This document shows positions 1 through 18,367 of a stretch of DNA of 40,133 nt, in pieces. The DNA comes from a virus (taxonomy: Duplodnaviria > Heunggongvirae > Uroviricota > Caudoviricetes), in the IMG/VR virus record IMGVR_UViG_2778261168_000005. One strand, written 5' to 3'. Position numbers and translations under genes: made by a program. Numbering within the stretch: position 1 is the first letter of the stretch; every line of letters begins with the position of its first letter. The notes under the pieces were generated by a model that did no database searches, was not told the origin of the DNA, and was given only the letters and a program-made list of their open reading frames with translations.

Positions 1-1020
1 CTACTTACCGACCACAAGCGGCAAATCCAGTGTTGGCGTGATTTTGGTTTTACGATCGTAAATCAACACCTGATTTTCTGTTTTGTGTCCACTGAAAATT
101 TGTTTGTCGCGACTGCTGCCTTCGTAATCTGAAATCCCTTTGGCTTTTATGTCATGGAAGTTGCACCCAAACGGAACGCCGGCTTTTTGCTCGGCTGCAC
201 GTTTAGCCTGATTCCACCAGTTGTTCAGCGTCTTGGCTATTACCTTCCCGCCTTTGGTTGTGTTGATCACATACTCGCATGTGCCGGAAGATACATTTCG
301 GGCTAACTGGATCGCCGTACGTAATCGCGGAGACCATTCCTTGATTTGTTTAGTTCCGGTCTTGTTTTGCTCAATGTAAATCCCTTTATCCATAATATCC
401 TGCCATTTCAGCTCGAGTACATCACCGAGCCTTGCCGCACAAAGATAGGATATCTCCATTGCAATACGTAACTGTGGAATTGCTTCCGCATATATTGCAG
501 CATACTGTTCATCGGTGATGTAAACAGTACGGGCTTTAAGTGTGAATTTTCTGGCTCCTTTGCATGGATTATTTTTCACATACCCACGCTCATATCCCCA
601 TCCGTATACGCGACTCAGACTTGCCAGTTCATGGTTTGCCTGGGTCTTGCTCTCAAGACCCCGCTTATCCATGAAAATTCTTACCTGCTCAATTTTTACA
701 TTATCAGCAAGCATTTTCCCGAATACCGCCAGTAATGCCCTTTGATGTTGCCGATAATCTTTTTGGGTTCGGGGGGCCAGTTCTGTAAATGCAGGGGAGT
801 CCATAAACATGTGCCATAATTTAGCTACGGTCATTATGTCGTGGAGTTTTGCCTTTTCCAGTTCATAATTTTGCCAGACTTTAGCCACGCTGGTTTCCCG
901 CACTCTTCCGAGCTTTATCGTTCTTGTGCTTCCTTTGGGTTTCCATACGTAACTGTAACCATTCGATCTAACGCGCGGTGGCAGTACATTATCTTTTTTG
1001 TCTTTTCTTGGTCTTCCCAT
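1..1020 (-). CDS. int: phage integrase (tyrosine recombinase family)
   Basis: 339-aa ORF at the prophage end, stop codon at bases 1-3, overlapped at its 5' end by a small xis-like ORF; size and Arg/Lys-rich N-terminus typical of lambdoid integrases. Catalytic residues not verified. Confidence 0.8.
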   Translation of the reverse strand: MGRPRKDKKDNVLPPRVRSNGYSYVWKPKGSTRTIKLGRVRETSVAKVWQNYELEKAKLHDIMTVAKLWHMFMDSPAFTELAPRTQKDYRQHQRALLAVFGKMLADNVKIEQVRIFMDKRGLESKTQANHELASLSRVYGWGYERGYVKNNPCKGARKFTLKARTVYITDEQYAAIYAEAIPQLRIAMEISYLCAARLGDVLELKWQDIMDKGIYIEQNKTGTKQIKEWSPRLRTAIQLARNVSSGTCEYVINTTKGGKVIAKTLNNWWNQAKRAAEQKAGVPFGCNFHDIKAKGISDYEGSSRDKQIFSGHKTENQVLIYDRKTKITPTLDLPLVVGK

Positions 1021-1306: not shown

Positions 1307-3787
1307 TTAAAAATCAGCCTGACTCGGGATCAGTTTTTGTATCGTAGCTGTAACGTATTTTGCCTGGTGACGGGCGTCATCCAGTGCATTGTGGCGCACG
1401 CCTTCGAATGGAATAACGGTTCTGGCATCAAAGTCGATTGTTTTTCCCAGCTCAACGATTGTGCGTACATCGCGATCGTTGTGGTAGCTCCACGGGCAGG
1501 GGATGTCCAGACGTTCGTATGAGGTGCGCAAAATTGCGTTATCGAAAGTTGCACCATTACCCCATACCTGAACGAATTTTTCATCTGAGTATTCGTTGAT
1601 GAACTCCCGAAACTGCGAAAGGGCATCCTTCAGTTTTACCTGGTCTGTTAAAATGGCAGCTCTGGCTTCACTGGACTGCTTCAGCCACCATTCGATGGTT
1701 CCACCGTCAGGAACAGCCCCTGTATTCATTGCGTCAGTCAGACTGATAACGATATAAAATACTGGCCCGATTTCCCCTGTTTGTGGGTCGAAGAAAACCG
1801 CACCAATAACCACGATGGGCGCATTGGTGTTGGTTCCCATTGTTTCAAGGTCGATCATCAGGTGGTACCACACTCTGCTGGTGGATGTGATAACGTGATG
1901 ACCGTTCACCGCAATTAAGGGATCTGCCGTCTCGCCAGTTTCATTATCGCTGGCGTGGTCCTGAGCGCTGCCAGCATTCTCCTTGTGTGGATGTTCAGCG
2001 CCTTCCATTTCCTCCGGATCATTTTCCTGAACTTCAACCTGATTCTCTTCATCGAATGTTTCCTGATATGTTGCGTCGCCCATCACCGCACCACAATCAG
2101 GGCAGTTGCCGCCACCGATCTGACCGCAGGCGGTGCAGACTTTTTCCGCTTCCTGTTGCGCTACCGGTTCGGATTGTTTCGTTTCTGGCTCGTTTTGTAA
2201 CGCATTTTGGCTGTTTTGTTCCGCTTTCTGGTTGTTCTGTTCCGTTTCTTGCTGGTTCTGGTTCACAGAATCGCGGGTTTCAATCCCCTTCACCCATTTC
2301 GGATCATTCGGGTCGCTAATCCCTGCAACAAATTCTCCGCGAGAGGCAGCAAGCAGTTCATTAGCGTCAGGCTGGCTGATATTGGCTGCCTGCATAATTT
2401 TGTTTACTTCGTCAGCGGTAACTTTTACCGGCTCTGGTTGTGCGGTCGTGTCAGATGCACCAGTATTTTGTTGTGAGCCTGAGTATGTACCGTTTTTGCG
2501 GGCAAAATATTCTTCTTTCGTGATTTCAGTAGCCCCTGCAGCCAGCGCCTTATTCAGACCAGAAAGTTTGTTTGCACGACCATATTTTTCGCCATCCTTA
2601 TCGGTGAAAAGGAAGTAGAACGGCCCCTCACGCTCTACAGATGGTTCAGTTTCCAGCGTGTTTTCATTTTTTTGGGTATCAGATACTTCAGTTTCCACTG
2701 CATCAGTTTGTACTGCTGACGGCTGGAGAATATCAGCAGTGTTCTGGTCTGTTTCTTCATCCTCAAACACGCCCTTTGTCGCCAGGTATTCAGTGATGTA
2801 TTTGTTCAGTGCTACGGGATCTTTGTGAATGTCGATCGGACGCTCACGGACAAGGCCAAAAATAGTCTGACGGTCGTAGCGAACGGCATCGGGTTGTTTG
2901 CGCATAGATGCGGAAATGCGCTTCCAGTCTTCGCGATCTTTGTCGATAACTTCATTTTTTGCCCAGCGATGGATGCTGCCGTCAATGTTTCCGGCATTAA
3001 TATCGCCAGGCCACAGAGCGTAGGCCAGTTCTTCATCCAGCGTTTTCCATGTCTGCTTGTATTCGCGATGAATGGCGGCAGTGGCGGGGTTGATTTTTCC
3101 TGCTGAGTTTTCAGTGTGCTGCCGGTTGACTCTGGCGCGGGCAAGATCAACAACAGACGTGTATTTCCCGGTTTCTTTGCGTTCGGTTTCGCGACGTTTT
3201 TTCCAGGTGCGTAATTCTGTCTGGATCTCAGGCCATTTTGCACCCGGCTTACATTTATGTTTAACCCACCCGATGGCGAGCAGCTTTAGTTCTGAATACA
3301 TGACGTTAACTTCAGGCATTTTCATCAATGCCTCAACGATATGCCCGTCGAATGTTGCCATGTCCTCCTGCAACAATTCCTGTGCACTAATCACCATATC
3401 AACGGTGATGTTTTCACATGTACCGAACTTAACCAGGACCGCGTTCTGTACTTCAAGGGACAGCTTGTCAAAATTGACGTTCATCGGATCGGATTCTGGT
3501 TCGACCGGGACAAAGGAAGCGCCTTCCTCATCCCAGCGGTTTTCCAGCATATATTCGGTATCCCAGGAGTCGATGGCAGGGCGGGGCATGCCGGGTTTAT
3601 CCTCGCAGACAAGAAATTTATAAGCGCAGTCCTGAGCAGCCGGATATTGCTCCAGGAATTGCCAGGTAAATTTGGCACGGGCGCGACGTTCGTCGCCGGC
3701 TTCAATGGCAGTGGCTACAGCGACTGCACCTTCTTTCTTTATTGCCTGTTCGTCCGGAATGGCGGCGCAAATAAAGACTTTACTCAT
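1307..3787 (-). CDS. phage exonuclease, RecE-like central region with C-terminal DEDDh-type 3'-5' exonuclease domain
   Basis: 826-aa ORF; SD GAGG about 10 nt upstream of ATG. C-terminal 170 aa carry DnaQ-like motifs (MIDLETMG..., ...[13 protein letters not shown]); a central stretch ([29 protein letters not shown]) resembles exodeoxyribonuclease VIII as I recall it. Confidence 0.7.
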
Positions 3788-5746: not shown

Positions 5747-5900
5747 GCTGACCTCATTTCCCCTTAACGCCGGGGTAGCGGAACTAAGATCTGTCGCACC
5801 GTTGTGCTTTGATGACTGAATGATACTACTTGAAGTAGATATGTCAACACTATAAGTAGAGTTAGTTGCGTTTTTGTCTACATAAAGTTGTTTTTTAAGA

Positions 5901-5925
5901 CAAAAAAAACCCGGCAATGCCGGGG
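5901..5925 (-). terminator. intrinsic terminator downstream of the repressor gene
   Basis: Minus-strand hairpin CCCGG-CATTG-CCGGG followed by 8 T; lies just past the repressor stop codon (5944). Confidence 0.6.
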
Positions 5926-5943
5926 TGTTGTTAACAGATAAAG

Positions 5944-6432
5944 TCACTCAGAAGGCGGTGGGGTGCTGGCGTATTTCTCGTAGAAATCGTAAAGTTTCTT
6001 GAGTCTCATCTCAAAAGCCAGAAGCATATTCTTGGCTTCAACTGGCGGAAACTCCCGAAACGTTCGTATCAGTCGCTTTTCATCTTCACTTAACTCAGTA
6101 AATTCGCCATTGCTATTGGCACCAGATCTTTGAGTTACAAATGAATCTTCTGCCGGTTCAATTCCTTTCTCTGTTAGCTGACCGTATTCCAGCCATGCAG
6201 GTTCAACACCCAGAAATTCTGCTATTCGTTCGAGTTTTTCGTCGCGGGGTTTAGCTGTACCTAGGGTGTAGCGCCGCGCCATTTCGTATGTGACGCCCGT
6301 AGATAAGCTTAAGTCTTTGATGGATTTGTTTTTTCTATCCATTTCTGACTTAAGTCTTGTTGCGAATGCGTGATGTTTATGTGCGTTTTCTACCATATGT
6401 AGAAGATTAAAGCAGTTGCCTCGATTCGTCAT
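5944..6432 (-). CDS. phage repressor-like HTH (XRE-family) transcriptional regulator
   Basis: ORF 5944-6453 with helix-turn-helix-like segment (KSIKDLSLSTGVTYEMARRY); divergent from a Cro-like gene with operator repeats between. Start uncertain (TTG 6453, ATG 6432 or ATG 6396); no SD, possibly leaderless. Confidence 0.65.
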   Translation of the reverse strand: MTNRGNCFNLLHMVENAHKHHAFATRLKSEMDRKNKSIKDLSLSTGVTYEMARRYTLGTAKPRDEKLERIAEFLGVEPAWLEYGQLTEKGIEPAEDSFVTQRSGANSNGEFTELSEDEKRLIRTFREFPPVEAKNMLLAFEMRLKKLYDFYEKYASTPPPSE

Positions 6433-6437
6433 TTCTA

Positions 6438-6476
6438 TTTTGTGTAGTTGCAAATTCTACTTTGTGTAGTATTATT
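6438..6476. promoter_or_regulatory. immunity-region operator/promoter (rightward TTGCAA-N16-TATTAT with two TTGTGTAGT operator repeats)
   Basis: Direct repeat TTGTGTAGT at 6440-6448 and 6462-6470 (22-bp spacing); -35 TTGCAA 6448-6453 and -10 TATTAT 6470-6475 oriented toward the Cro-like gene. Confidence 0.5.
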
Positions 6477-6502
6477 TCCCCGTTCTTGAAATGGAGCTAA
6501 CG

Positions 6503-6787
6503 ATGAGCACTACATACAAAAACATTACAGAAAAGGCGGTTATGGCTATTGGTTCTCCTTCTGCTGTAAGTCGCATGTTTGGTTTCAAATCGCCTCAATC
6601 CATTTTTAATTGGATTATTAGGAACAGGGTTCCTAGTGAGAGGGTTATTAGGCTTTGTGAGCTTGGGGGATGGATTGTTACTCCGCATGATCTCCGGCCT
6701 GATTTGCACCCTACTCCAGTTAGTGGGATTCCAGAAGAAGTTATCAGATCCAAAAAAATAGGGTTGATTCATGAAAATCAAGCATGA
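6503..6787 (+). CDS. Cro-like / YdaS-family small DNA-binding protein
   Basis: 94 aa from ATG 6503, SD GGAG 7 nt upstream; divergent from the repressor; resembles YdaS-type proteins (from memory). Confidence 0.6.
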   Translation: MSTTYKNITEKAVMAIGSPSAVSRMFGFKSPQSIFNWIIRNRVPSERVIRLCELGGWIVTPHDLRPDLHPTPVSGIPEEVIRSKKIGLIHENQA

Positions 6788-7196
6788 ACACATCCGCATG
6801 GCGATGAATGCCTGGGCGCATCCGGACGGCGAAAAAGTACCGGCTGCGAAAATTACCAAAGCGTATTTCGAACTGGGTATGACGTTCCCTGAACTGTATG
6901 ACGACAGCCATCCGGAAGCCCTGGCTCGTAATACCCAGAAAATTTTCCGCTGGGTGGAGAAAGACACTCCTGATGCGGTTAAAAAAATTCAGGCGTTGTT
7001 ACCAGCAATCGAAAAAGCAATGCCACCTCTGCTGGTGGCCCGAATGCGCAGCCACAGTTCAGCCTATTTTCGGGAGCTGGTGGAGACGCGGGAACGGCTG
7101 GTGAGAGACGCTGATGATTTAGTCGCAGTTGCGATCGCTGGTTTCAACCAGATGAATCGCGGTGGCCCGGCAGGAAATATTGTAGCAGTGCATTGA
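6771..7196 (+). CDS. YdaT-like protein (putative CII-like regulator)
   Basis: 141-aa ORF overlapping the Cro-like gene end; YdaT family recalled from the Rac prophage ydaS-ydaT pair. Confidence 0.55.
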   Translation: MKIKHEHIRMAMNAWAHPDGEKVPAAKITKAYFELGMTFPELYDDSHPEALARNTQKIFRWVEKDTPDAVKKIQALLPAIEKAMPPLLVARMRSHSSAYFRELVETRERLVRDADDLVAVAIAGFNQMNRGGPAGNIVAVH

Positions 7197-7267
7197 CTGG
7201 CAATATTCATACCGGATCGCTTCCGGCAATTTGTGAGTAAAAAGATTCGGTATCAGAAGAGGTGAGT

Positions 7268-8287
7268 ATGGCTAACGCCTGGCTCAGATTATGGCATGAC
7301 ATGCCAAATGATCCTAAGTGGCGAACAATTTCCAGGGTGTCAGGACAGCCAATCGCAACAGTAATGGCTGTGTATATCCACCTTCTGGTGAGCGCGTCAC
7401 GACATGTCACGACATGTCACGGCGTGTCACTACGCGGTCACATTGATGTCACGACGGAAGATTTAGCAAGTGCGCTTGATGTGACAGAAGAGGTTATTGA
7501 TTCAATTTTACAGGCAATGCAGGGTCGGGTGCTTGATGGAGATTTAATCACTGGATGGGAAAAACGCCAGGTACTGAAAGAGGACAATGGCAACGTTTCG
7601 CAAACCGCGAAATCCCCGGCAGAGCGCAAGAGAGCGCAGCGTGAGAGGGAAAAATTACGAAAACAGAATGATGAGTGTCACGACATGTCACGACGAGTCA
7701 CGACAGATAAAGATACAGATAAAGAATTAAACCCCACACATAACGCGCGCGTGCGCGAGAGTGCTCCGATCGGTGAGTCGAACGGTACGCCATCGCAGAC
7801 AACGGAGCCCGAATATCTGGACGGCATGAGCGAACCCATCGGGAAACTTCCGATGACCGATGGCTGGCATCCGTCTCCGGATTTTCGACGACGGGCTGCT
7901 CTGTGGGGAGTGGCTCTGCCTGAGCCGGAATTTACACCAGCTGAACTTGCAGCCTTCCGGGACTACTGGGCAGCGGAGGGGAAAGTGTTCACGCAGATTC
8001 AGTGGGAGCAGAAATTCGCCCGTCACGTAAATCACGTCAGGGCGCAGGCTAAACCAGTCAGCAAGGGGGCAAACCATGCAGCAGCACCAGGTGGCACCGC
8101 ATCACGGGCAGTTCAGGAAATTCGGGCAGCACGTGAGCAGTGGGAACGTGAAAACGGATTTATCAGCGACGGAAACGGCGTGGAAGCTGTGGGAACTCAT
8201 GGGGGAGGTTTATTCAAACCGCTGGACCCAGAAGAACGGGGCCGCACCTTCGAAGCTCTGGATTGCACAGATTGGCGTGATGACTGA
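7268..8287 (+). CDS. replication initiation protein, O-like (DUF1376/YdaU-type N-terminus)
   Basis: 339 aa from ATG 7268 (SD GAGGTGA); N-terminus MANAWLRLWHDMPNDPKWRTI...; contains two clusters of GTCAC iterons, as lambda ori lies within O. Confidence 0.65.
   Translation: MANAWLRLWHDMPNDPKWRTISRVSGQPIATVMAVYIHLLVSASRHVTTCHGVSLRGHIDVTTEDLASALDVTEEVIDSILQAMQGRVLDGDLITGWEKRQVLKEDNGNVSQTAKSPAERKRAQREREKLRKQNDECHDMSRRVTTDKDTDKELNPTHNARVRESAPIGESNGTPSQTTEPEYLDGMSEPIGKLPMTDGWHPSPDFRRRAALWGVALPEPEFTPAELAAFRDYWAAEGKVFTQIQWEQKFARHVNHVRAQAKPVSKGANHAAAPGGTASRAVQEIRAAREQWERENGFISDGNGVEAVGTHGGGLFKPLDPEERGRTFEALDCTDWRDD
7395..7457. repeat. iteron cluster 1 (six GTCAC-containing repeats at about 10-bp phasing), candidate replication origin
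   Basis: GTCACGACAT GTCACGACAT GTCACGGCGT GTCACTACGC ... GTCAC ... GTCACGAC; GTCAC starts at 7395, 7405, 7415, 7425, 7437, 7448. Confidence 0.6.
7677..7730. repeat. iteron cluster 2 (three GTCACGAC repeats) plus adjacent AT-rich stretch
   Basis: GTCACGACAT GTCACGACGA GTCACGACAG at 7677-7706, then ATAAAGATACAGATAAAGAATTAAA. Confidence 0.55.
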
Positions 8288-8741
8288 GCAGCAAATCCGG
8301 CAGGTCTGCCGCCAGTGCATGGACCGCTGCCGGGCGGGTGAAACATGGCCTCCGGATCTAGCTGAGTTTGTGGCGCTGATTTCGGAAAGCGGGGCCAATC
8401 CATTCGGTCTGACCGTGGATGCTGTGATGGAGGAGTACCGCCGCTGGCGCAATGAGTCCTGGCGATACGACGGAAGCGATAAGTATCCGTGGTCTCAGCC
8501 TGTGCTGTATCACATTTGTCTCGAGATGCGTTCAAAGGGGATTGAGCGCCAGATGACCGAAGGGGAGTTAAAACGGCTTGCAGAACGGCAGCTGACGAAA
8601 TGGGCAAAGCATGTTGGTAACGGCCTGAGCGTTCCGCCAGTCCGGCGACAACTGACGGCACCCAAACGCCCGTCGGGGCCAACGCCAATTGAGTTGCTGA
8701 AACAGGAATATGAACGCAGGAAAGCGGCAGGTTTTGTTTGA
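8076..8741 (+). CDS. replication protein P-like (helicase loader)
   Basis: 221-aa ORF; alignable by eye to lambda P (YPWSQPVLYHICLE vs YPWKSNAHYWLVT; MTEGELKRLAERQL vs LTDAELRRKAADEL). ATG 8076 has SD AGGGGG but overlaps the O-like gene by 212 nt; alternative start ATG 8280 overlaps the O stop. Confidence 0.6.
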   Translation: MQQHQVAPHHGQFRKFGQHVSSGNVKTDLSATETAWKLWELMGEVYSNRWTQKNGAAPSKLWIAQIGVMTEQQIRQVCRQCMDRCRAGETWPPDLAEFVALISESGANPFGLTVDAVMEEYRRWRNESWRYDGSDKYPWSQPVLYHICLEMRSKGIERQMTEGELKRLAERQLTKWAKHVGNGLSVPPVRRQLTAPKRPSGPTPIELLKQEYERRKAAGFV

Positions 8742-8770
8742 GTTGATAAGTAATTTTACCGGGAGGGTTT

Positions 8771-9166
8771 ATGGCGAAACCTTTTACACCCGAACAGCGG
8801 GAAGAGCTGAAGGCACGAATTATCGGATTGGTACGCAAAAATGGACGCATGACGATGTCGCAACTGGAGAGAGCGACGGGAGCAGGCTGGCATTCGGTCC
8901 GACGCTGCCTTGTGGATGTACTGGCTTGTGGCGATTTATACATGTCCGGTAAATACGGTGTTTTTACGTCAGAGCAGACGTATCGCGAATGGCGTAAGAC
9001 GCCGGAGAAAACAACTGACCAGACGCTGATTCGAAAGTTACCAGACGGAGAGATACGCCGCTACGACAGGAGCCAGAACATAATCTGCCGCGAGTGCCGG
9101 AAGAGTGAGGTTATGCAGCGAGTGCTGGCGTTTTATCAGGGTAATTTTCAGGAGGTGATGGCGTGA
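8771..9166 (+). CDS. hypothetical protein
   Basis: 131-aa ORF, SD GGGAGGG upstream; first gene of the nin-like cluster. Confidence 0.5.
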   Translation: MAKPFTPEQREELKARIIGLVRKNGRMTMSQLERATGAGWHSVRRCLVDVLACGDLYMSGKYGVFTSEQTYREWRKTPEKTTDQTLIRKLPDGEIRRYDRSQNIICRECRKSEVMQRVLAFYQGNFQEVMA

Positions 9167-9462
9167 GGGTGAGGGTTTATATCGCTGGTCCGATGACCGG
9201 GTATAAAAATTTCAACCGTGAGGCGTTCCACAAGGCGGAAGAGGAACTGAAACGGGAAGGGCATACAGTCTTAAACCCGGCAGTACTTCCAGACGGGCTG
9301 ACACAGCCACACTACATGGATATTTGCATGGCAATGATTCGTTGTGTGGATGCGATTTACATGCTGAAAGGCTGGCAGCGGTCAGCAGGCGCTAAGGCAG
9401 AACTGGCGCTGGCGGAGAAACTGGGGCATGCAGTTATTTTCCAGGAGGCAAACAGTGAGTAA
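9163..9462 (+). CDS. DUF4406 / nucleoside 2-deoxyribosyltransferase-like protein
   Basis: 99 aa; N-terminal VYIAGPMTG motif typical of the family; start overlaps previous stop. Confidence 0.55.
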   Translation: MRVRVYIAGPMTGYKNFNREAFHKAEEELKREGHTVLNPAVLPDGLTQPHYMDICMAMIRCVDAIYMLKGWQRSAGAKAELALAEKLGHAVIFQEANSE

Positions 9463-12068: not shown

Positions 12069-12155
12069 CGTAATTACTAATCCGGGGCTATATTTCCGGC
12101 GCGCCAGCAAAATCTGGCGTCGGGATTGGCGTCCCGGATGTTTACGGAGCGATAT

Positions 12156-12178
12156 GAGACGCGCCCGCGTCTTTTTTC
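12156..12178 (+). terminator. intrinsic terminator
   Basis: GAGACGCG-CCC-GCGTCT hairpin followed by TTTTTT. Confidence 0.5.
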
Positions 12179-12340
12179 ATATCGTTTGCACAGTCACATT
12201 CGCGATTTATGGCGGGCTGTGTGGGGGAGCCGAAAGGCTCGCCGGTTTCCGTACCCGGTTACGCCAACCCTGCACAGTTCGCCACCAGTTCGATTGGCGT
12301 CGTTGGTGGCGATAATTTCCAAATGTACGGAGTTATCGTT

Positions 12341-12886
12341 ATGACCACTCAAATCTCTGTTGAAACTCTCTCCCCGATCACCCATAACCAGGTCCCTGTT
12401 ATTACCACCGAACTTTTGGCGCAGCTTTATGGCACCGAAATTCTGAATATCCAGGTTAACTTCACCAGAAACAAAGAGCGTTTTGTCGAAGGAAAGCACT
12501 TTTTTAAAGCATCGGGTGAAGAATTAAAAAATTTGCGACTTACTTTAAGTAAGTCACAAAATCCCATCTCTCCCAAAACCCGCTCGCTTATACTCTGGAC
12601 AGAACGCGGAGCAGCCCGCCACGCCAAAATGCTGGAAACCGATCAGGCGTGGGAAGTGTTCGAAAAACTGGAAGACAGCTACTTCAATCAGTACGAGAAA
12701 GAGCGGGCTATGGGCAAAATAAATATCGATTTTCACCTGGCGATCCGTGACGATAAAACCGCTTTCATCCGAAGTTATGCGCCAGGTCAGCTGGTGACGG
12801 TTGAAGAAGCACTGACTTTGCTTAAATCGCGCGGATGGCTGGTAATGCCACGAGATGAACTTGCCGGAAAATTAATGGAGCTTTAA
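12341..12886 (+). CDS. phage antirepressor-like protein (ORF6N/KilA-N-type N-terminal domain)
   Basis: 181 aa from ATG 12341 (SD GGAG); N-terminus ...ELLAQLYGTEILNIQVNFTRNKERFVEGKHFF typical of ORF6N antirepressors; upstream part of the 225-aa ORF lacks a start signal. Confidence 0.65.
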   Translation: MTTQISVETLSPITHNQVPVITTELLAQLYGTEILNIQVNFTRNKERFVEGKHFFKASGEELKNLRLTLSKSQNPISPKTRSLILWTERGAARHAKMLETDQAWEVFEKLEDSYFNQYEKERAMGKINIDFHLAIRDDKTAFIRSYAPGQLVTVEEALTLLKSRGWLVMPRDELAGKLMEL

Positions 12887-12892
12887 CCGGTT

Positions 12893-12918
12893 GAGTTAAC
12901 CCCGATATGGGAATTCCC
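12893..12918. repeat. perfect 26-bp palindrome CCCGATATGGGAATTCCCATATCGGG
   Basis: Exact reverse-complement symmetry centred on GAATTC, 7 nt after the antirepressor stop; no T-run follows. Confidence 0.8.
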
Positions 12919-13101
12919 ATATCGGGTGAACATTGCCACCGGAGATAAAATAATTTGCGGTGAAAGGGAAGTTAAGTAGAATTGCTGCGGGTGCTTGAGG
13001 CTATCTGCCTCAGGCATGAACACCAAAAGGCAGATAGAGAAAAGCCCCAGTTAACATTACGCGTCCTGCAAGACGCTTAACATTAATCTGAGGCCATATC
13101 T

Positions 13102-13161
13102 ATGCGACACATAGAGATTAGCCTCTTACGGACCGAAAGGTCAAGGAGAAGCAGGCTATGA
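13102..13161 (+). CDS. short leader ORF translationally coupled to hok (mok-like)
   Basis: 19-codon ORF whose stop (TGA) overlaps the hok ATG (ATGA); known hok loci have an overlapping mok frame. Confidence 0.35.
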   Translation: MRHIEISLLRTERSRRSRL

Positions 13162-13313
13162 AGCAGCAAAAGGCGATGTTAATCGCCCTGATCGTCATCT
13201 GTTTAACCGTCATAGTGACGGCACTGGTAACGAGGAAAGACCTCTGCGAGGTACGAATCCGAACCGGCCAGACGGAGGTCGCTGTCTTCACAGCTTACGA
13301 ATCTGAGGAGTAA
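13158..13313 (+). CDS. hok: Hok/Gef-family type I toxin
   Basis: 51 aa MKQQKAMLIALIVICLTVIVTALVTRKDLCEVRIRTGQTEVAVFTAYESEE, near-identical in pattern to E. coli HokC/Gef as recalled; strong terminator downstream. Below ORF-track cutoff. Confidence 0.85.
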   Translation: MKQQKAMLIALIVICLTVIVTALVTRKDLCEVRIRTGQTEVAVFTAYESEE

Positions 13314-13382
13314 GAGACCTGGCGGGGGAGAAATCCCTCGCCACCTCTCATGTGTCAGGCATCCTCAAAGCACCCGCACTTA

Positions 13383-13409
13383 ACCCGCTTCGGCGGGTTT
13401 TGTTTTTCA
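13383..13409 (+). terminator. intrinsic terminator of the hok transcript
   Basis: CCCGC-TTCG-GCGGG hairpin followed by TTTTGTTTTT. Confidence 0.7.
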
Positions 13410-13488
13410 TGAATAAGGGATTAATAATTTTAACTGAAGTTATATTACCTTGTGGCCCGATAAGTTAATTAATTATCAATGCGCCTGT

Positions 13489-13623
13489 ATTGTTTGCATT
13501 GTTTGCATTGTTTGCATTGTTTGCATTGTTTGTATTGTTTGTATTGTTTGTATTGTTTGTATTGTTTGTATTGTTTGTATTGTTTGTATTGTTTGTATTG
13601 TTTTTATTATTTGCGTTGTTTGT
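13489..13623. repeat. tandem array of about 15 copies of a 9-bp unit (ATTGTTTGC x4, ATTGTTTGT x9, two degenerate)
   Basis: Direct reading of 13489-13623; the in-frame ORFs across it (CIVCIV... / CLHCLH...) are repeat artefacts without RBS. Confidence 0.9.
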
Positions 13624-13764
13624 GGTTTTATCTTTTTGAGTTTATTTTTTTTGCGTTGCTTAGAAATAAAGATTAATTAGAATCCTCCTGTTTTGAGTAG
13701 CGCGCAGGGACAAGAGGGATGGACCCCTTAAGGGGAGGTGTTTAAAGTTCACGGGATTTTGGTT

Positions 13765-13932
13765 ATGAACGATAAGGAATTAATTGCTGCGCTTTCTGTA
13801 CCTGGTAATTATGAAGTAATAGTTCTTGAGAATGGTGAATTTATCGTAATGCCATTGCCATCCGATGTTATTCTGATCACCAAAGAATCGCATGCGGATT
13901 CGGTCAGTCACTTCAGCATTAAGAAAGACTAG
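13765..13932 (+). CDS. hypothetical protein
   Basis: 55 aa from ATG 13765 (MNDKELIAAL...); GTG 13738 sits directly on the SD-like AAGGGGAGG; weak support. Confidence 0.35.
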   Translation: MNDKELIAALSVPGNYEVIVLENGEFIVMPLPSDVILITKESHADSVSHFSIKKD

Positions 13933-13998
13933 ATTATAATGCTGTAGTTAAAGCCAGCCTGAACAACTGGCGTCTGTCGCACCATTACGAGGATAGTA

Positions 13999-14277
13999 GT
14001 GGTGCATTACAAGAAAATTAACAATTCTGATAATTCAGCCGTCTTTGCCAGCAGGCACGGGCGGTGTTCTCACACATTCAAATATGACTGGTATCAGCAT
14101 GACCCCTGCACAGAAGAACAGGCCGAATGGCTGATTCAGAACTACCGCAGACGTGGGTATGAGTTTAGGAAAGCCCTCAGCCTCGATTATCGTCACTGGA
14201 TAATCTACGTCAGACTCCCTTATTCCGAACGCCCACCGCGTCCGTCCCGCACATTCCAGCAACGCATCTGGAGGTAA
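13999..14277 (+). CDS. hypothetical protein
   Basis: 92-aa ORF from GTG with GAGGA upstream; closely followed by the next gene. Confidence 0.45.
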   Translation: MVHYKKINNSDNSAVFASRHGRCSHTFKYDWYQHDPCTEEQAEWLIQNYRRRGYEFRKALSLDYRHWIIYVRLPYSERPPRPSRTFQQRIWR

Positions 14278-14278
14278 C

Positions 14279-15328
14279 GTGCGGGTATTGCTTCGACCTG
14301 TTCCGGTACCGGAACTTGGGCTGGTGGTGCTAAAGCCGGGCCGTGAATCCATGCAGGTATTTCATAACCCTCGAGTGCTGGTGGAGCCGGAACCGAAAAG
14401 CATGCGTGGTCTGCCGTCCGGAGTTGTTCCTGCCGTTCGCCAGCCGCTGGCGGAAGATAAATCATTACTGCCATTTTTCAGCGACGAACGGGTGATTCGT
14501 GCTGCCGGCGGCGCTGGTGCACTGTCTGACTGGCTCCTGCGTCATGTTAAATCCTGCCAGTGGCCTCATGGTGACTATCACCACAGCGAAACCGTCATAC
14601 ATCGTTACGGCACCGGCGCGATGGTGTTGTGCTGGCACTGCGACAACCAGCTGCGTGACCAGACCTCAGAATCACTTGAGCAACTTGCTCAACAAAACCT
14701 GACAGCATGGATGATTGACGTCATCCGTCACGCAATAAGCGGTGCGCAGGAGCGGGAATTATCGCTGGCTGAATTATCCTGGTGGGCTGTCTGCAATCAG
14801 GTGGCGGACGCACTACCGGAGGTAGTATTACGTCGTTCTCTGGGGTTACGTGCGGAAAAAATTCGCTCGGTGTACCGCGAAAGCGACATCATACCGGGAG
14901 AGCAGACAGCCACCAGCATACTGAAGCAGCGCACAAAAAATATTGTGCTATCGCCTCACGTCCACCAGCAACAGAACTCACCGCAGGAAAAGGCGGTGGT
15001 CAGCATTGCCGTTGATCCGGAGTCTCCGGAATCTTTCATGAAACGACCTAAACGTCGCCGTTGGGTTAACGAGAAATACACGCGCTGGGTGAAGACACAG
15101 CCGTGTGCGTGTTGTGGTAAGCCAGCCGACGATCCCCATCACCTGATTGGTCATGGTCAGGGCGGAATGGGGACAAAATCCCACGATATTTTCACGCTAC
15201 CGCTGTGCCGGGAGCATCACAACGAACTTCATGCGGATCCGCTGGCGTTCGAAGAAAAGCATGGTTCTCAGGTTGATTTAATTTTTCGTTTTCTTGATCA
15301 CGCCTTTGCAACCGGTGTGCTCGGGTAA
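14279..15328 (+). CDS. DUF968-like phage protein with C-terminal Cys/His (HNH-like) motif
   Basis: 349-aa ORF from GTG 14279 (SD GGAGG 5 nt upstream); C-terminus QPCACCGKPADDPHHLIGHGQGG...PLCREHHNELH. Confidence 0.55.
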   Translation: MRVLLRPVPVPELGLVVLKPGRESMQVFHNPRVLVEPEPKSMRGLPSGVVPAVRQPLAEDKSLLPFFSDERVIRAAGGAGALSDWLLRHVKSCQWPHGDYHHSETVIHRYGTGAMVLCWHCDNQLRDQTSESLEQLAQQNLTAWMIDVIRHAISGAQERELSLAELSWWAVCNQVADALPEVVLRRSLGLRAEKIRSVYRESDIIPGEQTATSILKQRTKNIVLSPHVHQQQNSPQEKAVVSIAVDPESPESFMKRPKRRRWVNEKYTRWVKTQPCACCGKPADDPHHLIGHGQGGMGTKSHDIFTLPLCREHHNELHADPLAFEEKHGSQVDLIFRFLDHAFATGVLG

Positions 15329-16929: not shown

Positions 16930-17157
16930 AGATAAAATATTAAGTAAGTCACAATTTTGTCGATTAATAATTGTTTTATTTAAGTGCGATTTGTTAAAAA
17001 GTTACAGCATGGTGAATCCCCCTCAGCGGCGGGGCATAATGACCGTCAGGTTGGGTTGCATTAGCGATAGTAGCAAGCAGCGGATTCTGTCTGGTCATTG
17101 CAGAATTCACCGGGAGGCACCCGGCACTATGACAATGATGGTAGTAAATGCGTATAC

Positions 17158-17185
17158 AAGCCCCTCATCCTGAGGGGCTTTTTTA
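17158..17185 (+). terminator. intrinsic terminator
   Basis: GCCCCTCA-TCC-TGAGGGGC followed by TTTTTT. Confidence 0.6.
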
Positions 17186-17230
17186 TTATGTGTGGTGAGT
17201 CTGAGGGGGGATGAATCAACTCATATGCTG

Positions 17231-18285: not shown

Positions 18286-18367
18286 CCGTCACTAACTCAT
18301 CGGGTAAGAGTGCATAACACGTATTGTTGTTTTGTGGTGCGGGGTTCGAGTCCACGGTGACGGTCCA
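18286..18367 (+). tRNA. tRNA-like element, probably a degenerate tRNA pseudogene
   Basis: Hand-folded: 7/7 acceptor stem (CCGTCAC / GTGACGG), U8, 4-bp D-stem with A14, G18G19, A21, T-arm CGGGG-TTCGAGT-CCACG, then T and CCA; but 27 nt lie between D- and T-arms (22 expected) and no canonical anticodon loop can be drawn. Terminator follows. Confidence 0.35.

Follow-up and report, generated by a model that had tools for sequence, protein, structure and literature searches.

The window analysed here, a stretch of 40,133 nucleotides from a tailed-phage record (IMG/VR IMGVR_UViG_2778261168_000005), carries short, evenly spaced GTCAC repeats inside a gene that looks like a replication initiator. This raises the question of whether the phage begins its replication within the gene for its own initiator. 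An initial annotation had proposed a probable origin there, and at the sequence level our analysis supports it through DNA-level selection on the repeats, recurrence of the layout in related loci, co-variation of the repeat core with the protein, an unstable tract, a location in linker-coding DNA and a P-type loader gene. We regard it as probable that a Rac-like lambdoid prophage has its vegetative (theta-type) origin between 7396 and about 7731, inside its own initiator gene, and that this origin works by the mechanism proposed below. The features concerned are:

6448..6475, plus strand: promoter-like site of the pR type, TTGCAA-16-TATTAT; a consensus match only (3 sites against 2.1 expected)
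7268..8287, plus strand: initiator gene (339 aa), holding both arrays and the tract
7396..7453, plus strand: array I, six direct GTCAC(G) cores starting at 7396, 7406, 7416, 7426, 7437 and 7448
7481..7485, minus strand: single inverted core, GTGAC on the plus strand, 33 bp past the last array I core
7677..7704, plus strand: array II, three direct GTCACGAC cores starting at 7677, 7687 and 7697
7703..7731, plus strand: A-rich, purine-strand-biased tract of low stability and marked conservation; proposed DNA unwinding element and mosaic junction
7744..7757, no strand assigned: G+C-rich palindrome CGCGCGCGTGCGCG of alternating pyrimidines and purines, flanking the tract on its right side and also present in Rac-SA53
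8076..8741, plus strand: lambda-P-like helicase loader gene (PF06992, 61.3 bits against a cut-off of 26; phrog_109, E=1.4e-62)

Both repeat groups named in the initial annotation are present. The six GTCAC repeats reported at 7395-7452 with a spacing of about 10 bp have cores 10, 10, 10, 11 and 11 bp apart (mean 10.4 bp per repeat), and the three further copies reported at 7677-7701 are spaced by 10 and 10 bp; as had also been claimed, the arrays and the tract all lie within the initiator reading frame. Tandem Repeats Finder called both arrays at period 10, and 229 bp separate them. In the 40-kb window GTCACGAC occurs eight times against 1.04 expected, a count reached in no shuffle, and six of these eight copies sit inside the two arrays. 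A sliding scan of the whole window for at least five copies of one 5-mer phased at 9-12 bp returned two places only, the second being an unrelated 9-bp tandem repeat (13489-13597). Lambda iterons are about 19 bp long, possess internal dyad symmetry and bind O dimers, whereas the present arrays consist of direct 6-bp cores lying 10-11 bp, or one helical turn, apart, and are not palindromic iterons of the lambda type.

The inverted core at 7481-7485 had been overlooked in the first reading. It falls on the codon of Val72, which is GTG in 22 of the 22 relatives having Val there. As a universal feature following array I it was rejected, and because it is found in 23 of 27 GTCAC-class loci against 5 of 32 loci of other classes, where its positions are scattered, we retained it as a class-specific feature whose place in the origin is uncertain. 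A TCACG pair at 8023 and 8032 was likewise rejected as a third array, since it belongs to the DnaT-domain coding sequence; judged by position, it is common to Rac-SA53, which is without arrays.

The AT-rich tract expected after the second repeat group is there as well. It reads AGATAAAGATACAGATAAAGAATTAAAC (about 21% G+C), with the hexamer periodicity AGATAA AGATAC AGATAA AGAATTAAAC, and 7703-7731 holds the least stable 25-bp duplex of 6400-9200, within the least stable 0.03% of the window. An AGATAA/AGATAC hexamer-periodic tract is found nearly always behind array II in the family. The homologous tracts of relatives have 34% G+C against 56% for the locus, falling below their locus in 63 of 64 cases, and contain AGA[TG]A at 4.1 per 48 nt against a background of 0.05 (77-fold enriched), with a modal spacing of 6. 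Codon choice follows the same bias in high-G+C hosts: Asp GAT:GAC is 103:4 in the tract and 77:66 elsewhere in the gene, and the corresponding figures for A/T-ending to G/C-ending Thr codons are 68:7 and 38:111. We propose that the tract serves as the DNA unwinding element. As a counterpoint, it is short (about 28 bp) and also codes for a charged Asp/Lys/Thr linker, and its composition could stem partly from the needs of the protein. Furthermore, the tract is not specific to the present initiator, since Rac-SA53 has it too, together with an initiator whose N-domain is of another type (DUF1376) and which lacks GTCAC arrays. The palindrome at 7744-7757 may be a boundary element, its membership of the origin being uncertain.

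The initiator comprises a winged-helix N-domain (residues 1-100), a disordered linker (137-187, pLDDT below 50) and a DnaT-like ssDNA-binding domain (about 187-263). Array I encodes residues 43-62, which form an indel-tolerant beta hairpin within the winged-helix domain; the structural model is less confident here, with pLDDT dropping over residues 41-60. Array II encodes residues 137-145 and, together with the tract, residues 137-155 of the linker. Array II and the tract therefore lie between the coding segments of the two domains, and array I departs from this arrangement in lying inside the N-domain coding. The C-domain matches the DnaT family PF17948 (64.8 bits against a cut-off of 25, Pfam, whole protein) and resembles the DnaT-ssDNA structures 4ou6 and 6aeq (Foldseek E ~2e-5, 52-59% identity), on which it superposes with target-normalised TM-scores of 0.85-0.92.

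Homology of the N-domain was sought in several ways. The Pfam scan of the whole initiator gave PF17948 alone, with no match to the lambda O family (Phage_rep_O), and the N-domain by itself, searched against Pfam at E up to 10, returned only a sub-threshold HTH_Crp_2 match. The match to TIGR01714 stayed below the cut-off (E=0.0094; 16.1 against 49.8 bits). For the N-domain, a profile-sequence comparison with SPP1 G38P (hhalign) gave a probability of 0.1%, and searching PDB sequences with its profile was negative as well. The gene does match PHROG replication-initiation families, and close relatives of the protein are named 'phage replisome organizer' by NCBI. The label 'O-like' given in the initial annotation is apt by position and logic; by homology it does not hold, Pfam finding a DnaT domain only. 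From these comparisons the initiator appears to be analogous to lambda O, not homologous.

Downstream lies the loader gene, whose start is uncertain: position 8076 implies a 212-nt overlap with the initiator gene, and the start that PGAP assigns to the homologous gene in an E. coli locus of 95.5% identity corresponds to about 8280. The promoter-like site at 6448-6475 precedes the genes for the cro-like and cII-like proteins, the initiator and the loader; rightward transcripts starting there would cross both arrays. Promoter and terminator scans of 5900-8900 gave site counts not above the shuffled expectation, the consensus scan found no promoter-like site between arrays I and II, and Rfam matched no RNA family in the region. 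At 7705-7725 one BLAST similarity block gives way to another that derives from a second phage group; the initiator gene is mosaic, and the tract is its recombination junction.

To place these features in a family context, we surveyed related loci. At least five phased copies were found in 55 of 68 loci from many bacterial groups, and none of the 334 segments of these loci used as controls exceeded four; about a fifth of the family loci are without clear arrays. The two arrays recur at the same two places in the gene, near nt 129-160 and nt 350-430. The core itself differs between loci, in the classes GTCACG, GAACGC, GTAACGC, GCAACGC and GTGACGC. Where both arrays of a locus are clear, scoring them independently yielded an identical core, or 5-mers that overlap within a single longer one. 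Core class co-varies with N-domain lineage, as would be predicted if the site and the domain that binds it had evolved together. A search for N-domain specificity residues, based on the mutual information of alignment columns and iteron class, was rejected as evidence: the top residues were those encoded by the repeats, a trivial outcome, and the rest were confounded by phylogeny, so that no residue outside the repeat-encoded hairpin co-varied convincingly with core class.

Spacing among 190 cores in relatives is 10 bp in 104 cases and 11 bp in 31. Copy number changes in frame-preserving 21-bp steps; array I has four to six copies in relatives, with differences that are 21-bp indels, and array II has three to five in close relatives, most commonly five. 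Arrangements of arrays I and II include 6+5, 6+4, 5+3 and 4+5, and the present window has 6+3. With array II at three cores, two short of the number in most close relatives, the resident prophage might conceivably carry a partly deleted, weakened origin. The CTACG 'repeats' of loci L054 and L070 were rejected as iterons, as they encode a GIY-YIG-like motif.

The N-domain, arrays and tract keep varied company. Their partners are P-like loaders in 11 of 60 cases, DnaB helicases in 10, IstB/DnaC-like proteins in 5, Toprim primases in 3, and others, and the G38P C-terminal domain PF09524 occurs on two relatives of the present N-domain (P0097 and P0111). We take this to indicate that the N-domain, arrays and tract form an exchangeable module. 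Relatives of the N-domain are found in prophages of Pseudomonas, Aeromonas, Bordetella, Ralstonia, Sphingomonas and others. Of 5426 complete E. coli genomes, 2592 carry at least part of the 1.6-kb segment and 654 carry most of it. A search of plasmids for replicons using this initiator gave 11 matches, mostly prophage-bearing large plasmids or mislabelled chromosomes; they include two ~51-kb Pseudomonas circles, a size typical of phage genomes.

Are the repeats under selection as DNA? Codon shuffles of the initiator gene reached nine phased copies in 0 of 5000 trials, and among 5000 synonymous recodings of the same protein the maximum was six phased copies against the nine observed and eight GTCAC occurrences against the ten observed. 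The period of 10-11 bp is no multiple of three, and consecutive copies consequently fall in different reading frames. Across 25 GTCAC-class genes, in which conserved 4- and 6-fold degenerate residues were scored, codon entropy was 1.3-2.4 bits outside the cores (mean 1.88) and 0-0.95 bits inside them (mean 0.23; Mann-Whitney p=6e-7). The Ser141 TCA and Val144 GTC codons of array II are invariant in 25 relatives, and array I is under synonymous constraint as strong as that on array II. The repeats are maintained by selection at the DNA level, not at the protein level.

We envision the following sequence of events. Early rightward transcription would lead to expression of the initiator, whose winged-helix N-domain would bind as monomers arranged head to tail, each on one 6-bp GTCACG core, once per turn and on one face of the DNA, with six at array I and three at array II. 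The coated arrays, possibly joined by looping of the ~230 bp between them, would strain the neighbouring AGATAA/AGATAC tract and melt it. The DnaT-like C-domain would then hold the ssDNA, dock the lambda-P-like loader, or both, so that the host DnaB helicase is delivered. Core binding by the N-domain, tract melting, array looping and the route of helicase recruitment are what we infer from the layout and from the protein's domains.

The alternative that survives best confines the origin to array II and the tract (7677-7731) and makes array I (7396-7453, plus the inverted core at 7481) an auxiliary initiator-binding array; overlapping our main explanation rather than excluding it, it strikes us as possible, if on balance unlikely. 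By obstructing transcription, array I could let the initiator regulate its own gene; it could also control copy number through initiator titration or handcuffing, or pause forks in the manner of SPP1 oriR. Consistent with such a division of labour, array I lies well away from array II with no A-rich tract beside it, and several lineages keep array II and the tract without array I (L040, L046, L062, L063, L072 and L076). In lambda, moreover, the two iterons nearest the AT-rich region are enough in vitro and the distal iterons are weakly bound (PMC7466680), and SPP1 G38P binds a second, distant set of sites, oriR, thought to stall forks and not to fire (PMC6316719). Against it, array I is constrained at synonymous sites no less than array II and has the same core in the same orientation in most family members, so that a single cooperative nucleoprotein complex spanning both arrays fits at least as well.

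A bolder version of the two-array origin that we prefer would make the locus one example of a widespread bipartite type. Here DnaD-like winged-helix monomers would coat both one-per-turn arrays and loop the ~230 bp of winged-helix-coding DNA, and (AGATAA/AGATAC)n would be read sequence-specifically on one melted strand, like DnaA-trios by DnaA. We consider this version speculative and doubtful, but a strand-read hexamer element would explain why the tract is conserved across initiator classes with different cores, even the unrelated DUF1376-type (YdaU).

It is far less probable that the true origin lies elsewhere and that the cores serve a different protein or process, for instance a repressor, a protein of packaging or partition, or hot-spot recombination that gives rise to mosaic replication modules. 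Such a reading can point to the mosaic junction, which falls on the tract, and to another conspicuous repeat array in AT-rich intergenic DNA of the window (13486-13623). Sites inside the binder's own gene are also known for terminase small subunits, as in the P22 pac site within gene 3. However, the core tracks the N-domain lineage across loci with differing flanking genes, C-domains and helicase partners, which points to the protein encoded by that same gene as the binder. By homology it is a replication protein, given its DnaT domain, P-like neighbour and PHROG matches, and the 13486 repeat is not conserved with the replication module, phage matches to 12900-14100 covering only 44% of it in two pieces. 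Least credible of all, and scarcely tenable, is that the repeats have no DNA-level function and are a by-product of a peptide motif (ASRNVTRGH... and ...SRNVT.DKD) or of replication slippage: the encoded peptides are indeed conserved in the family and copy number shifts through slippage-like 21-bp indels, but successive copies occupy different frames, synonymous recoding never yields the pattern, synonymous positions are invariant in the cores and near saturation at equivalent positions elsewhere, distant relatives with a changed peptide carry phased arrays of another core at the same places, and the structural model suggests that both encoded segments, a low-confidence hairpin and a disordered linker, tolerate change.

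How does the origin that we propose at 7396-7731 compare with known systems? The lambda origin, within gene O, is an experimentally proven origin inside an initiator gene, and lambda and Shiga-toxin phages have 4 and 6 iterons, respectively, with in-frame insertions in the protein to match (PMC7466680). The present locus resembles lambda O/P in the placement of the putative origin inside the initiator gene, between segments for a DNA-binding N-domain and a partner-binding C-domain; in its direct repeats followed by an A-rich, strand-biased tract; and in predicted rightward early transcription, with a P-type loader gene next. In both, iteron number varies among relatives, and the N-domain and ori are exchanged as a module apart from the C-domain and P. 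In contrast to lambda, the initiator has no sequence homology to O and its C-domain is DnaT-like, and where lambda has one array there are two here, one of them inside DNA-binding-domain coding.

The oriL of Bacillus phage SPP1, within gene 38, is likewise proven (PMC5737612, PMC6316719), and in the SPP1 system (G38P organizer, G39P loader, G40P helicase) the oriL sequence again has repeats and an A-rich unwinding element in the linker-coding part. Both initiators lack an AAA+ module, and a loader and/or helicase gene follows immediately. The N-domains, however, are not detectably homologous, SPP1 oriR is 13 kb away and intergenic, and hosts and helicase partners differ. According to PMC8965321 (citing McGrath 1999 and Ostergaard 2001), the organizers ORF13 and Rep2009 of the lactococcal phages TP901-1 and Tuc2009 bind direct repeats in their own genes, shown to be the origin. 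These TIGR01714/PF09681-type organizers share with our locus repeats inside the organizer gene, along with the NCBI name borne by the present protein's close relatives, and differ in hosts, C-domains and, apparently, repeat sequences, the TIGR01714 match here being below cut-off. E. coli/Salmonella DnaT has the same C-terminal ssDNA-binding domain but acts in PriA-dependent replication restart and is without an origin-binding domain; here the DnaT-like domain is fused to a putatively sequence-specific winged-helix module, and such C-terminal regions are found in only 9 of 61 family members.

Literature searches with the exact iteron strings and with combinations of ydaU, replisome organizer and iteron found nothing on this initiator family, and a paper on the replication regions of non-lambdoid Shiga-toxin phages contained none of the terms searched for iterons, direct repeats or a replication origin. 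The layout is the expected one, in an initiator family for which these searches found no bench work on binding, melting or replication, and most likely represents a known kind of origin. Its interest lies in a replication module that is very common and whose origin has apparently never been defined before. Placing the origin at 7396-7731 gives a target for mini-replicons, for incompatibility or "ectopic origin" interference and for the prediction of prophage induction. The natural series of core variants (GTCACG, GAACGC, GTAACGC, GCAACGC) lends itself to the study of specificity change in winged-helix initiators, and the conserved hexamer-repeat unwinding element has a testable role. An origin at this position would also account for the concentration of module exchange at this gene, and probably for the frequent breaks within it in short-read E. 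coli assemblies.

A complete lambdoid prophage or phage of the Rac-like type fills the window; its features relevant here are as follows.

Features of the window (strand where assigned)
1-1020, minus strand, integrase
1307-3787, minus strand, RecE-like exonuclease gene
5944-6453, minus strand, repressor gene
6491-6787, cro/YdaS-like gene
6771-7196, cII/YdaT-like gene
7268-8287, plus strand, initiator gene
7396, 7406, 7416, 7426, 7437 and 7448, plus strand, GTCAC starts of array I (motif search)
7481-7485, inverted core GTGAC, 33 bp past array I
7677, 7687 and 7697, plus strand, GTCAC starts of array II (motif search)
8076-8741, ORF containing the lambda-P-like loader
8771-9166, Ren-like DUF977 gene
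right of the DUF977 gene, RusA and Q
rightward part, putative lysis and contractile-tail morphogenesis ORFs

The initiator product has strong PHROG matches to replication initiation proteins, and its residues 195-261 form a bona fide Pfam DnaT domain (64.8 bits). The initial annotation had called it O-like, which holds by position and logic but not by family: no lambda O match was found, and the protein lies outside the lambda O family. Its N-domain may or may not belong to the replisome-organizer N-domain family; TIGR01714 scored 16.1 bits (cut-off 49.8), and hhalign with SPP1 G38P gave no match. At its 3′ end, the initiator ORF (end 8287) shares 212 nt (8076-8287) with the P-like ORF (possible start 8076), which is read in another frame. 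In the annotation by PGAP, NCBI's pipeline, the homologous P gene starts just 8 nt ahead of the initiator stop codon; homology to the loader reaches well upstream of a start of this type, and one PHROG family of 482 residues covers the two proteins together, as a fusion in some phages would. Beside an alternative P start, a frameshift or fusion product may be among the explanations.

Within the initiator gene, the phased GTCAC repeats reported in the initial annotation are borne out and lie far beyond chance. Across array I, the sequence from 7393 to 7457 is cgcGTCACGacat GTCACGacat GTCACGgcgt GTCACTacgcg GTCACAttgat GTCACGacgg, and across array II, that from 7674 to 7704 is agtGTCACGacat GTCACGacga GTCACGac; both arrays are called as period-10 arrays by Tandem Repeats Finder and by a repeat finder. 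The window has 8 copies of the 8-mer GTCACGAC, where 1.04 are expected; six of them lie in the two arrays, and no shuffle reached 8. Across the 40 kb, a 5-mer recurs at least five times with a phase of 9-12 bp in only two places, the arrays region and an unrelated 9-bp tandem repeat (13489-13597). Nine phased copies were reached in 0 of 5000 codon shuffles of the gene, and 5000 synonymous recodings, which keep the protein unchanged, yielded no more than six phased copies and never more than eight GTCAC, where ten are observed.

Further repeats and RNA elements were recorded elsewhere in the window. The sole other strongly phased repeats (13486-13623) consist of a 9-bp unit (TGCATTGTT / TGTATTGTT) repeated fifteen times in tandem in AT-rich intergenic DNA, past a terminator-like hairpin and between an anti-repressor gene with a sok/hok-like locus and an ORF on the minus strand (14035-14352); phage matches to 12900-14100 cover 44% in two pieces. 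At 12088-12886 and 12989-13160, Rfam places c4-a1b1, isrK and C4 antisense RNA just upstream of, and overlapping, the anti-repressor gene start, which together with that gene is a P1-type immI arrangement, and a sok antitoxin RNA further right. The STnc100 match (16978-17190) lies past the Q-like gene on its downstream side. ARAGORN calls a tRNA-Val of 82 nt at 18286-18367, whose anticodon, AAC, is unusual; the Rfam tRNA model stays below its gathering score at this place, and the call is probably either false or a degenerate tRNA. Finally, a 21-bp repeat of about 3.9 copies (2174-2260) within the RecE-like exonuclease gene (1307-3787, minus strand) is probably a protein-level repeat, because its period equals seven codons.

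Selection on the initiator-gene repeats acts at the level of DNA, not protein. Since the period is 10-11 bp, successive cores fall in different reading frames and leave no repeat in the protein. Residues 43-62, a hairpin with a dip in model confidence, are encoded by array I, and residues 137-155, in the disordered linker, by array II together with the tract. We aligned the codons of 25 genes sharing the GTCAC core (55-93% protein identity). At conserved four- and six-fold degenerate residues, codon entropy is 1.3-2.4 bits outside the cores, with a mean of 1.88 as opposed to 0.23 inside them (Mann-Whitney p=6e-7). Among the codons that overlap the cores, Ala43 GCG (23/25) and Ser44 TCA (24/25) are nearly invariant, and Val47 GTC, Thr48 ACG, Gly57 GGT, Val61 GTC, Thr62 ACG, Ser141 TCA and Val144 GTC are found in 25/25. 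Wherever residue 72 is Val in this alignment, its codon is GTG, which forms the inverted core.

The N-terminal 155 residues have relatives in Escherichia, Pseudomonas, Aeromonas, Ralstonia, Microcystis and uncultured phages, and hundreds in metagenomes. For comparison we took 74 loci of diverse genomes, together with 80 viral contigs that are close relatives. Within the gene's first 640 nt, 55 of 68 diverse loci carry at least five phased copies of one 5-mer, a number that no control segment reached (334 segments of these loci, maximum 4). These copies form two arrays, one near nt 129-160 and the other near nt 350-430 of the gene. The core differs by lineage, being GTCACG in about half and GAACGC, GTAACGC, GCAACGC or GTGACGC in the rest; Ralstonia phage Hennie (34% protein identity) carries four plus five GCAACGC. 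Where both arrays of a gene are clear, independent scoring gave an identical core for the two, or 5-mers that overlap within a single longer core. In the close E. coli relatives, copies in arrays I and II number 6+5 (58 loci), 6+4 (21) or 5+3 (1); phages 606R7 and 689R5 have 4+5 and the window 6+3, the differences being 21-bp indels of two units each that keep the frame. In about a fifth of loci, clear arrays are missing or array II alone is kept.

Two loci, from Serratia and Pantoea genomes (L054 and L070, 2501-3100 in each), join the winged-helix N-domain to a GIY-YIG-like C-terminal region and lack both the arrays and the A-rich tract; in these genes the domain may serve a job other than replication, for which it was recruited. 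Most E. coli relatives in the database (P0007, P0010, P0031 and others) are "partial" proteins, each standing for hundreds to over a thousand member sequences, so short-read assemblies evidently often break inside the initiator gene, presumably because parts of the gene are common to several prophages of one genome.

In 60 loci, the gene that follows the initiator is P-like (11), a DnaB-type helicase (10), IstB/DnaC-like (5), Toprim-containing (3) or G39P-like (1), the remainder being other or unassigned, and the DnaT-like C-terminal region occurs in just 9 of 61 relatives. N-domain, arrays and tract thus move as one cassette, joined to many helicase-recruitment modules, by the same logic as in lambda, where the O N-terminus pairs with ori and the C-terminus with P.

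The AT-rich tract that had been noted after the second repeat set is present, with AGATAAAGATACAGATAAAGAATTAAAC immediately following array II. Across loci, the 40 nt past the last array II core average 34% G+C against 56% for the loci (below the locus in 63/64), are 75% purine on the coding strand and nearly always start AGATAAAGATA or AGATACAGATA. The tract holds 4.1 copies of AGA[TG]A per 48 nt and the flanks 0.05; the predominant spacing is 6 nt, and 53 of 61 loci have at least three copies. In 39 loci of at least 55% G+C, Asp GAT:GAC is 103:4 in the tract and 77:66 in the remainder of these genes (p=3e-15), and A/T- versus G/C-ending Thr codons are 68:7 and 38:111 (p=9e-22). Selection thus acts on the motif as DNA, over and above the needs of a charged linker. 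In the window, 7706-7731 is the least stable 25-bp duplex in 6400-9200 and within the lowest 0.03% overall.

The tract is also the splice point of a mosaic gene: phages 606R7, 689R5, Tritos and Evi match the left block (to 7725) at 87% identity, and the right block (from 7705), including the P-like gene, matches at 94% that of Rac-SA53, whose initiator has a different N-domain and no GTCAC arrays, yet the same tract. In the Rac-SA53 ydaU gene (DUF1376-type; L003, 2900-3040), an inverted repeat, TGTTCAAACA ... TGTTTGAACA, lies just upstream of the shared GATACAGAT tract and may be the recognition element of a different origin type. A 14-nt alternating pyrimidine-purine palindrome, CGCGCGCGTGCGCG (7744-7757), 13 nt right of the tract and common to Rac-SA53, may be a right-hand origin boundary element; many distant relatives have CCCCCC...CCCCCC...GGGGG at this position, encoding PP..PP.G.

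All the features by which sequence can recognize an iteron-plus-unwinding-element origin embedded in an initiator gene were found, in keeping with the origin signature proposed in the initial annotation. The simplest account is that the arrays and tract are, quite probably, an origin of the lambda, SPP1 or TP901-1 kind. We envision that winged-helix domains would line up head to tail on the cores, one for each helical turn (array I averages 10.4 bp per repeat), that looping could occur between the arrays, that the weak adjoining tract would open, and that the C-terminal domain and P-like loader would recruit host DnaB. The main alternative, that array I is regulatory or auxiliary and stands outside the firing origin, we consider possible but rather doubtful. 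Binding of the cores by another protein is unlikely, as the core co-varies with lineage while the partner modules differ. Repeats without any DNA-level function are excluded by the shuffles and recodings and by the frozen synonymous codons.

The comparators were established by experiment; the evidence on the present locus comes from sequence. Lambda ori lies mid-gene O, with four iterons (six in Shiga-toxin phages, with 13 extra residues) and an AT-rich tract (PMC7466680). SPP1 oriL, repeats plus an unwinding element inside gene 38, suffices for reconstituted replication (PMC5737612, PMC6316719), and we read repeats and an A-rich tract in the gene 38 linker sequence. TP901-1 ORF13 and Tuc2009 Rep2009 bind repeats inside their own genes that serve as origin (PMC8965321). 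Three features of the present locus rank as variants: the two arrays, one inside the coding sequence of the DNA-binding domain, the 6-bp cores at one per turn, and the conserved hexamer-repeat tract. No paper on these iterons was found in the searchable literature, where older subscription titles are thinly covered. This replication module is found in part in about half of complete E. coli genomes; the origin layout is unsurprising to a specialist, but common and directly testable.
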